The translations under genes and the position numbers were made by a program. A stretch of 63,263 bases of DNA from Saprospiraceae bacterium. Its GTDB lineage: Bacteria > Bacteroidota > Bacteroidia > Chitinophagales > Saprospiraceae. The stretch lies in assembly GCA_043721685.1 (NCBI GenBank), contig JAYSQG010000007.1, positions 1 through 63,263 on the forward strand. The letters run 5' to 3'. Each line of letters begins with the position of its first letter. Position 1 is the stretch's first letter. The notes under the pieces were generated by a model. It saw nothing but the letters and a program-made list of their open reading frames with translations. It had not been told where the DNA came from and did not search any database. Shown one piece after another: positions 7,851 to 54,821 of the stretch.

Positions 7851-10800
7851 ATGCCCGATTTCAATAAAAATTTCATACAAACCCTCGCGTCTCTCAATGC
7901 GCAACAACGTGTGGCTGTTGAACACATTGACGGACCGACCCTCGTTATCGCTGGTCCGGGAACGGGCAAAACGCATATCCTTGCCGCACGTATCGGGCAG
8001 ATTTTGACCGTTACCGATACGCAGCCTTATAATATATTGTGTCTGACCTTTACCGATGCAGGTGTACAAGCGATGCGTGAACGTCTGATGTCGCTAATTG
8101 GACCTGCAGCACACAAGGTGCATATCAGCACTTTTCACTCGTTTTGCAACCGTGTGATTCAAGACAATCTCGATTTGTTTGGGCGACAAGACCTCACGCA
8201 GCTTGATGAATTAGAACGTCGTCAAATCATTCGTCAATTGCTCGACGAATTGCCGCATGAACATGCGCTCAAACGGGGGCGAGGTTCAGACGTTTATTTT
8301 TATGAAAAACACCTTGCCGACCTTTTCAAATTGATGAAAACCGAAGCATGGACCCCTCAGTATATCAGCCGAAAAGTAGATGATTGGTTAGAGTATCTGC
8401 CACAAAACCCTGATTTTCAATACAAAATCAATAAAAAAGGGCTGTTTTCAAAAGGTGATTTAAAAACTGAAACCATTGCCGATGAAGTCGAAAAAATGGA
8501 AAAACTCAAAGCGGCGGCGCAACTCTATTACCGTTTTGAAGCCCTCAAAGCCGCTCCAAACCGCTACGATTTTGACGATATGGTGCTGTGGGTGATTGAT
8601 GCGTTCGATAGATTTCCGTTTTTACTGAGGGGGTATCAAGAGCAATTTTTATACTTTTTGGTAGATGAATTTCAAGACACAAACGGCTCACAAAACCGCA
8701 TTTTGAGTCAACTCATTGGCTTTTGGGAGCAACCCAATATTTTTATTGTCGGAGACGACGACCAAGCGATTTATGAATTTCAAGGCGCGAGGCTTAAAAG
8801 TTTGGTTGATTTTTATGAGACCTATAAAAAAGATGTAAAGGTTGTCGTCTTAAAAGACAATTATCGTTCATCTCAAAACATTCTCGATTCAGCACGTAAT
8901 GTCATTGAAAACAACGCATTACGTATTTTGAATAATATCCAAGGTTTAAGTTTAGAAAAAAACCTCATTGCAAAAGGCAGTGTTTCGGAATCGAAAATAG
9001 TTCCTCAAATTATTGAATATCCAAACCGTACCCATGAAGTTATCGACATTGTTCAACAAATCGAAGCCTTAAACAATTCTGATACCCCCCTCCCGACTGC
9101 TTCGGGACAGGTCAAAACAACAGCAATAATTTATGCCCGACATCGCCAAATCGAGCCACTTATTGCACTTTTTGATAAACGAGGTGTGCCTTATACCGTT
9201 CGTCGTGCGCTCAATGTTTTAGACGATTCTTTGATTCAAAATTTAAGGCTTTTGCTTACTTATATCGCTCTGGAAAGTCGGCAACCGTTTAGTGGTGAAC
9301 ATTTGTTGTTCAAAATTCTGAATATGCGTTTTTTAGAAATTCTGCAACAGGATGTTTTGAGATTGACGACCTATTTAGTTAAGAAAAATCCTACTAATGT
9401 CATTGCGAGGAACGAAGCAACCGAGGGGGACGCTGAAATAACGTTTGAAGAAAATAGCAACGTTAAAATGACTTGGCGTGAAACAATCGCTCAATTACCG
9501 CGCATAAAAATTTTAGATAAAAATAAAATCACAACTTTTTCGACGCATCTCGAATCATGGATTTCGGCAGTTGGCAACGACCCTTTGCCCGTTTTGATTG
9601 AACATATTCTGAATCAAAGTGGCTTGTTGTCGTGGGTTTTGAAAGAAGAAAACAAAACAGAATACACGCAAATTATTTACACTCTTTTTGATTTTGTCAA
9701 AAATGAAACCGCTAAAAGACCCCGTTTGACCCTTGCAGATTTCTTGAAAACGTTGGATTTGATGGATGCTAACAATATTCGTTTAGAATTTATCAAAAAC
9801 ACGGTTGCCAAAGACGGCAGTAATCCTGTTGTTTTGACAACCGCACATTCTGCAAAAGGCTTAGAATTTGACCGTGTTTTTATTGTTGATGCGGTAAAAA
9901 CGGAATGGGAGGAAGCCCGAAGTGGCAGCGTTTATCGTTTCAAACTGCCTGAATCGCTTACTTTTACAGCAGAAGCTGATGCGACAGAAGCAAGGCGACG
10001 GCTGTTTTATGTGGCGACTACAAGGGCAAAAGAGCATTTGACCGTCAGTTATGCTCGAACAGATGGACGTGGGAAAGGCTTGATGCAAACCCAATTTTTA
10101 GATGAAATGAATGCTCCTGCCCTTGAGAAAAGGCAGCTTGACGATGATTCTGTTTTAGACAGTCAAATAGCTTTATTGACTGAGGGGGTCGAAATTGAAA
10201 CAGATTTGCTTGAAAAAGCCTTTGTTAAAAACGTTTTGAAGGATTTTCAACTCTCAATTTCCGCGCTGAATGCTTATTTAGATTGTCCGTTGAGTTTTTA
10301 TTTTTCTTATATCCTAAAAGTGCCTTCGCAACCGAGCGCGTATTTTCAATATGGTGAAGCGGTGCATTTTGCTTTGCGCAAACTGTTTGGTGAGATGTTG
10401 AGGTCAAAAGAAAAACAATTTCCAAACAGTGATGAATTTGTGAACTATTTTGAGACAGATTTGCAGCGTCGCCGCCCGTTTTTTGACAACGCCGATTTTG
10501 AAAGGCGTTTAGAAACAGGTGTCACTAATTTGAGATTGTACTATAACCAATTCGTGCATAAATTCCCAAAAACTGTGGTTGTTGAAAAAACACTTGTTGC
10601 AGAGATTGAAGGTGTGCCTGTACGTGGTATTTTAGATAAAATCGAATATCGGGCAGACGGTTCGGTGCATATTGTGGATTATAAAACTGGGAAACAAGCC
10701 GATGAAAAACTGCGTCGTCCTTCAACTCGAAACCCTTTGGGTGGTGATTATTGGCGGCAATTGGTTTTTTATAAATTATTGTACGAAAATTTCAGAGCCA

Positions 10801-27240: not shown

Positions 27241-28467
27241 CTATTCCTCACGTGTTACCGAAGCCACACGCATCGCTCTCGAAGCGGCGGGTAAAGACGC
27301 TAACATACCAATAGAAATGACCGTTATGGCAACAACAATAAAATCACTAAATTTTAAAGCAACAGGATAGCGGTCTGTTGCAAAGCCTGGGGGCAATGGC
27401 ACAAGTCCACCATCGGCATAAACATGGTAAAAGTACAAACCCATTGCTATGATAAAGCCACTTATCAAACCCGTCAAACACATCAACAGCCCTTCGTTGA
27501 GAAATATATTGCGAATCAATTTTTCCGTTGCGCCCATGCTTTTTAGGATTGTGATGTCTTTTTGTTTTTCTAAAACAATCATCCACAATGCGCCGACCAT
27601 ATTGAAAGCGACCAACAGAATCGTCAAACCTAAAATAGCGTAACTCATCCATTTTTCGACATTCATCACTTTCATAAAGGCTTCGTCTTGTTGATAGCGG
27701 TCTTTGACGGTAAATCCATCGCCCATGATGCGGCGAATATCGGCGAGGGTTTGTTTGGCATTGGCACTCGTATTGAGTTTAATTTCATAGGCAGAGACCT
27801 CGTCGGGTGCGTCGAGTAGGTCGCGCATGAAATCTATATTCGTCAGAACATATTGATTATCAAACTCTGTTTGAATGACAAATGCGCCTTTGGGGTATAA
27901 AAAACGTTTGGTAAATGGTTGGCTGAATGCACCGCCACCGCCTTCACGTTTGGGCATATAAATACTGAGGGGGGTCGCAAAACTGGTTTCATATACGCCT
28001 AATTGATTGCGCATACCGCCGCCCAAAACCGCATAGTCGGCTTGCTCGTCTATGAGCAAATATTCCCCTTCACGGATGGTCGTATCAATATGATTTATTC
28101 TATGAAAATTGTCGTCAACGCCTTTCAAAGTGCCAAAGGCTTGTGATTTGTCGTATTCAAAAAAGGCAATTTCTTCAAGGGTTTCAGAGAGTAACACTAC
28201 GCCATTGAGTTGACGTAATTGGCTGATTTTCAAGGTGTCAGTAACGAATGTCTTTCCTTTTGTGGCTGTAATTTTAACATCGGGATTAAAATTGGACATC
28301 ATACCCATAATGAGTTTTTCAAACCCATTGAACACCGCTAAAACAAGCACCAATGCCGCAGTGCCCAATGCCAAACCAAAGACCGAAATACCTGTAATGA
28401 CATTGATGGCATTCGTTGATTTTTTCGCAAAGAGGTAGCGGCGTGCTATTTTAAGAGGTAGATTCAT
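27241..28467 (-). CDS. FtsX-like ABC transporter permease (LolC/E-like)
   Basis: Start moved to ATG 28467 (MNLPLKIARRYLF...), because the track ORF starts at a TTG. It has a MacB-like periplasmic domain and a C-terminal FtsX four-helix region. Confidence 0.85.
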   Translation of the reverse strand: MNLPLKIARRYLFAKKSTNAINVITGISVFGLALGTAALVLVLAVFNGFEKLIMGMMSNFNPDVKITATKGKTFVTDTLKISQLRQLNGVVLLSETLEEIAFFEYDKSQAFGTLKGVDDNFHRINHIDTTIREGEYLLIDEQADYAVLGGGMRNQLGVYETSFATPLSIYMPKREGGGGAFSQPFTKRFLYPKGAFVIQTEFDNQYVLTNIDFMRDLLDAPDEVSAYEIKLNTSANAKQTLADIRRIMGDGFTVKDRYQQDEAFMKVMNVEKWMSYAILGLTILLVAFNMVGALWMIVLEKQKDITILKSMGATEKLIRNIFLNEGLLMCLTGLISGFIIAMGLYFYHVYADGGLVPLPPGFATDRYPVALKFSDFIVVAITVISIGMLASLPAASRAMRVASVTREE

Positions 28468-28480
28468 GTATTGGTGAATG

Positions 28481-28499
28481 TCCAAAGGACTCCTTTGGA
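28481..28499. repeat. 19-nt perfect palindrome TCCAAAGGAcTCCTTTGGA flanked by direct repeats GGTGAAT
   Basis: GGTGAAT occurs at 28473-28479 and again at 28500-28506. The element lies 14 nt upstream of the permease ATG. Confidence 0.9.
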
Positions 28500-28539
28500 G
28501 GTGAATATTTTAATGGTGAATAGTGTGTCACCGATTTAT

Positions 28540-30749: not shown

Positions 30750-30780
30750 CCCCCTTCCAAAGGAATCCTTCGGATCAGTA
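30750..30780 (-). repeat. TACTGAGGGG-type motif split by a 19-nt palindrome
   Basis: The reverse strand reads TACTGA-tccgaaggattcctttgga-AGGGGG. The palindrome occupies 30756-30774. Confidence 0.85.
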
Positions 30781-48483: not shown

Positions 48484-49323
48484 ATGATAGTTAGTATAGT
48501 CGGTATTGGTCTCATCGGCGGTTCAATCGCAATTGGTCTCTACGAATCGGGTTTTGCAACCGAAATAATTGGTGTCGAAGCATCAGCAGAACATGCTCAA
48601 AAAGCATTGGATTTAGGTTTGGTTAACCGCATTTTACCACTTGACGAAGCGATTGCAGCGAGCGATATTGTCATCGTCGCAACGCCTGTGAACAGTTTGA
48701 CGACTTTGCTGCCGCATATTTTGGACAAAGTGGATAAGCAAATTGTGATGGATGTCGGTTCTACGAAAGTCAATATCATGGAAGCGGTACGGTCGCACCC
48801 AAAACGTGCCAATTTTATTGCGACACACCCGATGGCAGGAACGGAATTTTCAGGACCACAAGCCGCTGTGCAGAAGTTGTTTGAAGATAAAGTGTGTGTT
48901 TTGTGCGATATTGAACAAAGCAGTGAAGAAGCACGCAATACAGCAGAAGCAATGTATAAGTCGTTGAAAATGAACACACTGTATATGAACGCAGAAAGCC
49001 ATGACGTGCATACGGCTTATGTGAGTCATATTTCACACATATCGAGTTTCGCTTTGGCTTTAACCGTTTTGGAAAAGGAGCACGACGAAAATGCCATTTT
49101 CAACTTAGCAAGCGGTGGTTTTCGCTCATCTGTGCGTTTGGCAAAATCGAATCCAGAGACATGGATTCCGATTTTTGAACAAAACCGCGACAATGTTTTG
49201 GACGTTTTGGACGAGCACATACATATATTGAGTACGATGCGGTCGCATTTGATAAAACGCCGTTTTACTGATTTTTACGCCATGATTGAAAAGGCGAATG
49301 ATATTAAGCGGATTTTGAAGTGA
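48484..49323 (+). CDS. tyrA: prephenate dehydrogenase
   Basis: 279 aa with the Rossmann start IVGIGLIGGS and the HPMAGTE active-site block. Confidence 0.88.
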   Translation: MIVSIVGIGLIGGSIAIGLYESGFATEIIGVEASAEHAQKALDLGLVNRILPLDEAIAASDIVIVATPVNSLTTLLPHILDKVDKQIVMDVGSTKVNIMEAVRSHPKRANFIATHPMAGTEFSGPQAAVQKLFEDKVCVLCDIEQSSEEARNTAEAMYKSLKMNTLYMNAESHDVHTAYVSHISHISSFALALTVLEKEHDENAIFNLASGGFRSSVRLAKSNPETWIPIFEQNRDNVLDVLDEHIHILSTMRSHLIKRRFTDFYAMIEKANDIKRILK

Positions 49324-49325
49324 GA

Positions 49326-49356
49326 TACTGTCCGAATGGACTCCTTCGGTGAGGGG
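49326..49356 (+). repeat. TACTGAGGGG motif split by a 19-nt imperfect palindrome
   Basis: Reads TACTG-tccgaatggactccttcgg-TGAGGGG and begins 3 nt after the tyrA stop. Confidence 0.85.
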
Positions 49357-49538
49357 ACGTTGGCAATCGGATTTTTGGAAAAATTGGATTTTCAAAAGAA
49401 GGGGAATATGCCTAAATTGCGAGCCTTTTTAAACAAAAATAAGGGAAAATAAAGCATTTATACAAAGGGGTTAAAACGAAGCAATAACAATTTTTAAAAT
49501 ATAGCAATCAGTTTTTTATCAAAAAAAAGAAAAAAATC

Positions 49539-50645
49539 ATGGATTTAAAACCTTTTTTAGAAGTACAGACAAAACGCCCGTTCCTCATCGCAGGACCTTG
49601 TTCGGCAGAGACCGAAGGGCAAGTTATGAGTATCGCACGCGATTTGGCGGCACAAGGCAATGTTGACCTTTTCCGCAGTGGCATCTGGAAACCGCGTACA
49701 CGTCCGGGTATGTTTGAAGGCGTAGGCAGCGAAGGCTTGAAATGGCTTAAACGCGTCAAAGAAGAGACAGGTTTGCGCACGACGGTGGAAGTTGCGAATG
49801 CACACCACGTCTATGAAGCCTTGAAATTTGGCGTTGACGTATTGTGGATTGGCGCACGGACGACGGTAAACCCGTTTTCAGTGCAGGAAATCGCTGATGC
49901 TTTGCGTGGCGTTGACATTCCTGTGATGATTAAAAACCCAATTAATCCCGATTTGGAATTGTGGTTGGGTGCTTTTGAACGCTTGAACAAAGTGGGTATT
50001 ACACGTATGGCAGCGATTCACCGTGGCTTTTCATCGGCTGCAAAAACGCAGTACCGCAATGTGCCACATTGGGACATTGCGATTGAATTGATGCGTCGTT
50101 TGCCCAATTTGCCTGTTATTGGCGACAATTCACACATTTGTGGCAACCGTCACATGTTGGCAGAAGTGGCGCAAGAAATGATGGATTTGAACTTTGATGG
50201 TTTGATTACAGAAGTTCACTGCAATCCTGACGAAGCGTGGTCTGATGCTAAACAGCAAATCACACCACCTGTTTATAAAGAATTGATTGATAATTTGGTG
50301 TTGCGTGCAGAAAAAGACGCGGGTTTCTTGAACTCAATCGAGTCTTTGCGTGTACGTATTGACGAAGTAGATAACGAATTGTTGACTTTGCTTGGTAAAC
50401 GTATGCAGTTTGCAGAAGAGATTGGAGATTACAAAAAGCGTAATAGTATTGCTATATTACAAACCAGCCGTTGGAACGAGATTTTGAATTCAGCTGTTCA
50501 AAAAGGTCGTCAACAGGGTTTGAGCGATGAGTTTGTTATTCAGTTGTTGACAGCGATTCACCAGGAGTCTATTCGTCACCAAACTTTGGTGATGAATGCA
50601 CATGATGAAAAAGTAGCTGAAACATCTTTGGCAACAGCGAAGTAA
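49539..50645 (+). CDS. bifunctional 3-deoxy-7-phosphoheptulonate synthase (KDO8PS-like class I-beta) / chorismate mutase
   Basis: 368 aa. The N-terminal DAHPS has GPCSAE and KPRT motifs. The C-terminal ~90 aa form an AroQ-type CM (RIDEVDNELLTLLGKR...). Confidence 0.88.
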   Translation: MDLKPFLEVQTKRPFLIAGPCSAETEGQVMSIARDLAAQGNVDLFRSGIWKPRTRPGMFEGVGSEGLKWLKRVKEETGLRTTVEVANAHHVYEALKFGVDVLWIGARTTVNPFSVQEIADALRGVDIPVMIKNPINPDLELWLGAFERLNKVGITRMAAIHRGFSSAAKTQYRNVPHWDIAIELMRRLPNLPVIGDNSHICGNRHMLAEVAQEMMDLNFDGLITEVHCNPDEAWSDAKQQITPPVYKELIDNLVLRAEKDAGFLNSIESLRVRIDEVDNELLTLLGKRMQFAEEIGDYKKRNSIAILQTSRWNEILNSAVQKGRQQGLSDEFVIQLLTAIHQESIRHQTLVMNAHDEKVAETSLATAK

Positions 50646-50670
50646 TATTGTTGTCAAATAGCATATCAAG

Positions 50671-50735
50671 GGCAAAAGACACCCCTCAGTATCGAGCAAT
50701 CGTTGGGGTGTTTTTTGCCTTTTTTATTTTTTTTA
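50671..50735 (+). terminator. intrinsic terminator whose 5' arm contains a CCCCTCAGTA copy
   Basis: A 15-bp stem (ggcaaaagacacccc / ggggtgttttttgcc, one mismatch) followed by a T-rich run. Confidence 0.7.
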
Positions 50736-50978
50736 AGAAGGAAATACCTTGTTTATGGTATTTTTAAAAAAATAATAGGAAAAAAAGAAGTTTAAATAGA
50801 TGGAAAATTGCAATTATTTTTCACAATGCCATATTCTTGTAGGTTAATTTTATGTTGATAGTCAATTGTTTATGACTTAAAAATGCATAAATTTAACTAA
50901 AAATAAATAGAACAATGCCCTTAAAATGTCTTTGGCAGAACAGAAAAGGAATCTCATCTTTGTAACATGTTCAAGGAT

Positions 50979-54663: not shown

Positions 54664-54821
54664 CCCTGAAAATCGAAGATTCCATAGGAAGGGGGTGTTT
54701 TGGGGTGATAATGAAGTAAGTAAAGCAAATCGTAAATATTAGTAATTTCATATTTTAAGGTTCCATACTGAGGGGTGTTTCCTTACTGGAATTCTCAATT
54801 TTTAAATTTTCAAATAAAAAA

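Follow-up and report, generated by a model that had tools for sequence, protein, structure and literature searches.

What has cut one copy of a very abundant word in two just past a tyrA-like gene? The window, the whole stretch of 63,263 nucleotides analysed here, comes from an uncultured Saprospiraceae bacterium (Bacteroidota) and has 40% G+C. It carries 50 exact copies of the decamer TACTGAGGGG on both strands against 0.02 expected, and in its longer form it reads W-TACTGAGGGG-K, followed on the 3′ side by A+T-rich sequence. Among the intact copies, 37 lie in coding DNA on both strands and 13 are intergenic. The density is about 1 per 1.3 kb in the window and ~1 per kb in the orthologous relatives.

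The density and the A+T-rich 3′ flank of the decamer recall the DNA uptake sequences. A full-text literature search for the decamer gave matches to unrelated primers only.

The split copy sits within the 215-nt spacer between a prephenate dehydrogenase (tyrA-like, PDH_N/PDH_C) gene and a DAHP synthase/chorismate mutase gene. It starts 3 nt past the stop codon of the former (49321–49323), and the palindrome that interrupts the word there reads exactly as the preliminary description had it. The features are these.

48484–49323: prephenate dehydrogenase gene
49326–49356 (+): whole split motif as read from the sequence, TACTG, then TCCGAATGGACTCCTTCGGT, then GAGGGG
49326–49330 (+): left motif half TACTG, with the G at 49330 being the target base that got duplicated
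49331–49349 (+): insert as first delimited, tccgaatggactccttcgg, followed by TGAGGGG at 49350–49356
49331–49350 (+): decayed dyad copy of TCCRAAGGA-C-TCCTTYGGA, by comparison with the family consensus and the relative L004
49331–49340, 49341 and 49342–49350: left arm with an extra T at 49337, centre C and right arm of the decayed dyad
49351–49356 (+): right motif part GAGGGG, with the G at 49351 being the duplicate of the target base
49539–50645: DAHP synthase/chorismate mutase gene

A systematic search of the window for split motifs found this insert only twice, at 49326–49356 (+) and 30751–30780 (−). The palindromes at 30756 and 28481, earlier assigned to the same family, both match TCCRAAGGANTCCTTYGGA exactly with 0.07 expected in the window, so the assignment holds. 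Two of the three window palindromes are thus inside the motif, a word covering ~0.2% of positions, which is far above chance.

30751–30780 (−): second split motif, TACTGA, then TCCGAAGGATTCCTTTGGA (30774–30756), then AGGGG, upstream of fabH; a perfect 19-mer with its centre T between duplicated A's
28480–28500 (+): third dyad copy, G-TCCAAAGGACTCCTTTGGA-G, in a GGTGAAT tandem repeat, a non-motif target

That the 30756 palindrome also splits a motif copy was missing from the preliminary description. The 28481 copy is inside a GGTGAAT/ATTCACC 7-mer repeat region between two genes (window 28440–28530). In the locus L257 (2585–2650), these 7-mers form a long inverted repeat, in which three GGTGAAT-like units face three or four ATTCACC units.

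Two other places in the window look similar. At 9392–9428, an apparent split motif reads TACT, AATGTCATTGCGAGGAACGAAGCAACC, GAGGGGG with a 27-nt insert that has its own hairpin TTGC...GCAA. No second copy of this insert was present in the loci examined, so that chance or some other small element may account for it. At 54664–54700, CCCTGAAAA-TCGAAGATTCCATAGGA-AGGGGGTG has the look of a T-centred copy that is old and decayed, within a motif that has decayed too. Near the place corresponding to 54673, L008 has TATACTGAGGGA in a spacer too diverged for reliable alignment.

Relatives tell which state of the locus is the older. The exact tyrA product was found only in Logan assemblies of SRR236172xx, and the spacers there are identical to the window. 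Orthologous loci were reached through tyrA homologues as L004, L008, L011, L131, L133 and L134 with protein identities of 94, 90, 90, 87, 82 and 81%, respectively. Nucleotide identity in three genes orders them as (((window, L004), L008), L011), then L131/L133 and then L134.

At site 1, right after the tyrA stop, the motif (G/A/T)TACTGAGGGGGT is unbroken in L011 (GGTACTGAGGGGGTG), L131 (GATACTGAGGGGGTG) and L134 (ATTACTGAGGGGGTA). The uninterrupted word that the preliminary description proposed to seek in the tyrA–DAHPS spacer of relatives is therefore present, in loci with 90, 87 and 81% identical tyrA proteins. The palindrome fills the site in the window, L004 and L008. Because the filled state is confined to this inner clade and the three outgroups are intact, the insertion is derived. 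The L008 copy looks T-centred and the window and L004 copies are C-centred, so site 1 may have taken one insertion event or two.

Four more sites are polymorphic in the same way. Site 2 is a motif that precedes the DAHP synthase gene; L004 and L008 keep it whole, and L011 alone has it interrupted, by TTTAAAGGATTCCTTCGGA. At site 3, a motif 3′ of the same gene, only L004 has the word broken, by a perfect 19-mer (L004 12205–12223). The 30756 site is empty in L255/L256 (TATACTGAGGAG; FabH 98% identical) and in L257 (TATACTGAGGGGGG). At the 28481 site, L257 carries the uninterrupted ATTCACC repeat, ATTCACCATTCACCATTCACC.

49461–49470 (+): site 2 in the window, a decayed motif TACAAAGGGG; the L011 counterpart is filled (L011 11362–11380)
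50682–50691 (−): site 3 in the window, an intact motif in a terminator-like loop; the empty site for the L004 insertion

In total there are five filled/empty pairs, four in motif copies and the one at 28481 not. The dyad splits the motif also in L004, L008, L011, L098 and L103. At least four and probably five independent insertions took place among genomes 2–15% diverged. A filled site may also revert to empty by precise excision.

The aromatic amino-acid cluster is itself variable among the relatives. A PF09414 RNA-ligase-domain gene or a 179-aa ORF precedes tyrA in some of them (L004 9205–9969; L008 and L011 about 9306–9846), and the window has neither. The L011 spacer between tyrA and the DAHP synthase gene has 400 nt extra with a 70-aa ORF (L011 10966–11178). 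In L133 and L134 (10842–14027), PHP, ATP-grasp and DUF7033 genes lie between the two genes. After the DAHP synthase gene, the window has a terminator-like structure at 50655–50725, ACACCCC...GGGGTGT and then T's, whose loop and stem take in the motif. One stem arm of it is the motif G-run, and the structure is conserved in L008, L011, L131 and L134.

All five filled/empty pairs, the non-motif one included, differ by the same 20 bp, where the filled allele has a 19-mer plus 1 repeated target base. The insertion unit is a 19-bp dyad, TCCRAAGGA-N-TCCTTYGGA, and N is the complement of the duplicated base. The layouts are as follows.

Site 1: TACT-G-[19, centre C]-G-AGGGG
Sites 2, 3 and 30756: TACTG-A-[19, centre T]-A-GGGG
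28481: ATTCAC-C-[19, centre G]-C-ATTCACC

The 49331 copy departs from the consensus by one inserted T (49337) and by the change of its last base from A to T (49350). L004 retains the A and still reads ...TCCTTCGGA-GAG at site 1, an unmutated dyad end. The preliminary description had proposed a palindromic insertion into the motif with a 2-bp TG duplication. The insertion is borne out by the empty sites, but the duplication is of 1 bp, the G of TACTG/A, in agreement with all five pairs. In the second TG, the T belongs to the dyad as its mutated final base, and the TG duplication has to be given up.

The dyad is found far beyond the window. Exact matches to its pattern, in genomes that were partial, fall at 119 loci or more across the species-representative genome collection against ~35 expected by chance in 596 Gb, and at 120 or more in metagenomes. 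The matches listed are nearly all from Bacteroidota (Chitinophagaceae, Saprospiraceae, Sphingobacteriales, Bacteroidales and Cytophagales), Ignavibacteriota, Balneolaceae or Calditrichaceae. Four among those listed are from other phyla, a number that chance or mis-binning could account for. The dyad is also present in a cultured isolate, Niabella hibiscisoli (L063).

One match from outside these groups can be traced. L087, a metagenome-assembled genome labelled Chloroflexota, has about the same sequence around the dyad as the Chitinophagales locus L095 in reverse complement. This suggests that its copy reflects mis-binning rather than a true occurrence beyond the FCB group (Fibrobacteres-Chlorobi-Bacteroidetes).

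Among the matches listed, 100 of 126 copies are outside long ORFs (stop-to-stop, at least 150 aa) and 26 are inside, though such ORFs make up 79% of the DNA. All-against-all clustering of the 1430 ORFs around the 126 copies (0.8 Mb) gave no recurrent transposase or recombinase. The families that recur near the copies are common ones only, namely T9SS-tailed proteins, ABC ATPases and response regulators. Viral contigs gave 3 dyad matches, about the chance number, hence no sign of a phage vector. A full-text search of the searchable literature for dyad sequences matched no paper.

Some copies are compounded. Nested dyads occur in L059, L083, L065 and L042, and L048 has a tandem pair at 2581–2626 with a 27-nt period. 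In L042, L059, L065, L072, L083, L090, L096 and L102, the dyad is within arrays of CCRAAGG/CCTTYGG units, such as CCCGAAGGGATCC[19]CCTTCGGGAG. The nested and tandem arrangements suggest self-targeting or stepwise growth of palindromes.

The centre base follows the flanks across the family. The genome collection supplied 126 of the exact copies listed, an unbiased sample. Once their strands are normalised, the combinations of flank, centre and flank are G-C-G in 98, A-T-A in 8, G-T-G in 3 and A-C-A in 0, a coupling with Fisher p = 4e-10. The flank logo is symmetric, t-G[19]G-a, where T at −2 and A at +2 are weaker preferences. The 122 T-centred metagenome copies among the matches listed include 34 A-T-A and 38 G-T-G. 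As this metagenome scan returned no motif-bearing contig, it speaks to the flank rule and not to the motif association.

The A-T-A copies among these 122 are mostly in hairpin loops. In gCCG-A-[19]-A-AGGc, for example, the dyad entered a further CCGAAGG mini-hairpin at its central A. The G-T-G copies are most simply the major class after a C-to-T change of the centre.

The consensus dyad can form an 8-bp stem with a triloop at −7.7 kcal/mol as DNA and −11.7 kcal/mol as RNA. Positions 4 and 16 are, in the 126 copies among the matches listed, G-C in 39, A·C in 38, G·T in 37 and A-T in 12, without covariation. A long 9-bp stem as the selected feature was ruled out, as these two positions do not covary. 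As loop bases they would fit two mini-hairpins, TCC-RAA-GGA and TCC-TTY-GGA.

With the flank and the centre base added, the 5′ half of each strand reads N-TCC-RAA-GGA-Nc and has a stem of 4 bp. The DNA mini-hairpin d(GCGAAGC), which is highly stable, has C(GAA)G as its core. The dyad reads alike on both strands, and on either strand the RAA half always comes before the TTY half, the reverse order being 0 versus 10 unselected copies.

Is the abundant word a target for the dyad, as the preliminary description suspected? In ~200 kb from motif-bearing Saprospiraceae, the flanks tie 7 of 8 dyad copies to motif halves, always at G5 or A6. In the window, just 2% of the TGA, 5% of the GAG and 13% of the TGAG sites belong to the motif, although an intergenic-only comparison raises its share (13 of 50 intact motifs are intergenic). 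With six of the seven independent events in the motif, the estimated p is ~1e-3 if the target is TGAG and lower if it is a 3-mer. As the ~200 kb are from partly orthologous genomes, the preference rests on 6–7 independent events.

The motif core c-T-G-A-g-g agrees with the family-wide flank preference t-G-a-r-k. Accordingly, the motif appears to be a good and very abundant form of a general target. Elsewhere in Bacteroidota and Ignavibacteriota, the dyad occupies t-G/A-a sites and hairpin loops. On the sequences at hand, the motif is a preferred dyad target in this lineage but not the sole one, given the non-motif site 28481 and the widespread family.

The split changes the fate of the word. 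Intact motifs compared between orthologues have ~1% mismatch against 8–20% in their flanks, and split copies have ~9 changes per 80 motif positions. Decayed halves of split motifs include GAGAAGG and TACCGA in L004, TACTA.../...AAGGATG in L008 and TACCGA/AGGGAG in L011. Since the split copies decay and the intact copies are conserved, the intact word is actively maintained and the insertion releases it from the maintenance.

With insertion polarity, 19+1 anatomy, flank/centre rule, target preference and loss of constraint after splitting all shown by the data, we consider the dyad likely to be an ultra-small mobile palindrome, non-autonomous and with a preference for the TGA/GAG core of the motif. 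The 49331 hairpin would then probably be a decayed copy of this ultra-small non-coding insertion element. Since the dyad has no coding capacity, its propagation must depend on an enzyme that acts in trans. Each integration would add the dyad and duplicate 1 bp of target X to yield t-X-[TCCRAAGGA-Xc-TCCTTYGGA]-X-a. In the Saprospiraceae lineage, it would land at motif G5 (C-centred, as at 49331) or A6 (T-centred, as at 30756) and destroy the decamer, which would then lose its conservation.

We infer that the trans-acting enzyme would make a symmetric 1-nt staggered cut at a quasi-palindromic T-N-A site. The unit recognised or made may be the 5′ half of each strand, the purine-loop mini-hairpin N-TCC-RAA-GGA-Nc. 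The centre base would be set during integration instead of being carried by a rigid element. The GAA/AAA asymmetry varies independently of the one between centre and flank (38 versus 37), which argues for a centre fixed at integration, as a rigid element in random orientation would differ. Weighing against the mobile element, no enzyme, donor or intermediate was found in the loci around the copies. Moreover, G flanks are frequent around a T centre (38 of 122 copies), for which a C-to-T change at the centre is the presumed cause.

Other origins of the split were weighed against the same data. That TACTG and TGAGGGG merely adjoin an unrelated palindrome by chance is hardly credible. Short half-words do occur randomly, and the gapped window matches at 9392 and 19563 may be such. 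However, the same dyad splits the second window motif and those of the five loci named above, the expected numbers are 0.02 (motif) and 0.07 (dyad), and the empty orthologous sites exist, so the comparative data refute this. It is very improbable that a selected but immobile hairpin, such as a terminator, a protein operator or a small RNA, arose or was recruited beside tyrA. Its location 8 nt past the stop codon, the 8-bp stem of the consensus with its RNA stability and the many copies elsewhere at tips of longer hairpins would suit such a function. Nevertheless, the sequence 3′ of the 49331 hairpin, GAGGGGACGTTGG, has no T tract, and a terminator/promoter scan of 49200–50800 called no terminator-like site, none at the hairpin. 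Rfam 15 gave no gathering-score hit across the window and only chance-level hits around the split site. The window copy, being decayed, folds weakly as DNA (−4 kcal/mol, z = −0.7), no better than shuffled sequences, and this decay refutes a selected hairpin. The lack of covariation at positions 4 and 16 also disfavours a selected stem, as does the presence or absence in close relatives at five sites with unrelated neighbours.

Two further accounts involve DNA breakage. In one, a larger transposon with TCCRAAGGA... termini entered the motif and left its two 9-bp ends on excision. Some eukaryotic transposons such as the P element make long staggered cuts leaving terminal-repeat remnants, and the dyad resembles a pair of terminal inverted repeats joined end to end, with a short target duplication. 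Footprints are rare for bacterial insertion sequences, though, and 1.4 Mb of loci from many genomes yielded no long element with these arms at its ends. Single RAA-loop half-sites are at the chance level (8 observed versus ~6 expected), and the surplus TTY-loop half-sites are ordinary hairpin tips. With no large insertion in any relative at the five polymorphic sites and the complementary centre base left unexplained, we regard an excision footprint as quite doubtful.

In the other account, which we hold unlikely, the dyad is a templated signature scar left at 1-nt-staggered breaks by a conserved FCB-group enzyme system, not a donor copy. Both 3′ ends would be extended with TCCRAAGGA from a built-in template, a snap-back would copy the unpaired base, and joining and fill-in would follow. 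Such a scar would jointly account for the 1-bp duplication, the centre complementary to the duplicated base and the purine-loop half always being 5′, and also fits the independence of positions 4 and 16. A template encoded in an enzyme would explain the identical 19-mer across phyla more easily than would a 19-bp parasite that is copied neutrally. The motif would be a frequently cut site and the dyad would mark the cut position, in keeping with insertions at two adjacent motif positions only, G5 and A6. If so, this clustering would reveal TACTGAGGGG as a programmed cleavage site, for example in DNA uptake, recombination or defence. However, the scar is purely inferential, with neither a candidate enzyme nor a template found, and we know of no bacterial system that makes such templated break scars. 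The nested and tandem copies and the two heritable classes (G-C-G and A-T-A) equally fit copying from a donor.

If the mobile-element reading is true, few mobile DNA units described from bacteria would be as small as the dyad, with 20 bp added per event. Its unusual and very clean integration signature and superphylum-wide distribution would point to an undiscovered trans-acting enzyme. It would also provide a natural experiment on TACTGAGGGG, where the split word loses its conservation and the reactive position is located at the centre. Practically, 20-bp intergenic indels can mislead alignment and strain typing of Bacteroidota metagenome-assembled genomes. As the cultured N. hibiscisoli carries the dyad, these ideas are experimentally testable.

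Among known small elements, the intrinsic terminator is a G+C-rich stem-loop with a T tract, and the 49331 hairpin does not conform to it. The IS200/IS605 elements insert strand-specifically 3′ of a fixed tetra- or pentanucleotide without duplication and have distinct left and right hairpins, whereas the dyad is identical on both strands and has a 1-bp duplication and a loose t-R-a target. To our knowledge, a 1-bp target duplication matches no insertion-sequence family. The dyad is like the MITEs in being non-autonomous and mostly intergenic with terminal inverted repeats (9-bp arms) and a target-site duplication. However, MITEs are 50–500 bp and derive from an identifiable IS, while the dyad is just arms plus one base and no parent was found in 1.4 Mb.

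REPs are extragenic palindromes of 20–40 bp in many copies with a GTAG or CGTC tag (PMC3733652). They are thought to be non-autonomous mobile DNA and come as singles, dimers or arrays (PMC3733652, PMC3116915). The dyad is in the same size class as REPs and REPINs (19–21 bp), dispersed, mostly intergenic and sometimes nested or in tandem. It differs by lacking the GTAG/CGTC tag, by full symmetry, 1-bp duplication and target-coupled centre and by its Bacteroidota and Ignavibacteriota hosts. No RAYT (HUH/Y1) gene was seen beside the copies within the loci searched (1430 ORFs around 126 copies).

The mitochondrial palindromic clusters, such as the yeast GC42/GC clusters and the Allomyces double-hairpin elements, have duplicated target nucleotides, AG for GC42 (PMC4478555). 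They are polymorphic at homologous positions, concentrate their variation in loops and merge or nest (PMC4478555, citing Paquin et al. 2000 and Weiller et al. 1989). Unlike the dyad, they are organellar, longer (~26–79 nt) and G+C-rich in an A+T-rich background, and have another target and unrelated sequences.

The closest in behaviour are the SDRs of heterocystous cyanobacteria. Elhai et al. (2008, Genome Res 18:1484; ref. 43 in PMC3116915) reportedly described them as hairpin-forming dispersed repeats of 21–27 nt and “very small mobile repeated elements”. Their mobility was reportedly inferred from orthologous presence/absence and mutual insertion, with no enzyme known. SDRs are not known to duplicate 1 bp, to follow a centre-complement rule or to insert preferentially into a hyper-abundant word. 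The dyad differs also by phylum, being in the FCB group and not in cyanobacteria, and its sequence is not known to be related to theirs. Yet it is likewise polymorphic at orthologous sites and nested, as in L059, L083, L065 and the gCCGA[19]AAGGc class.
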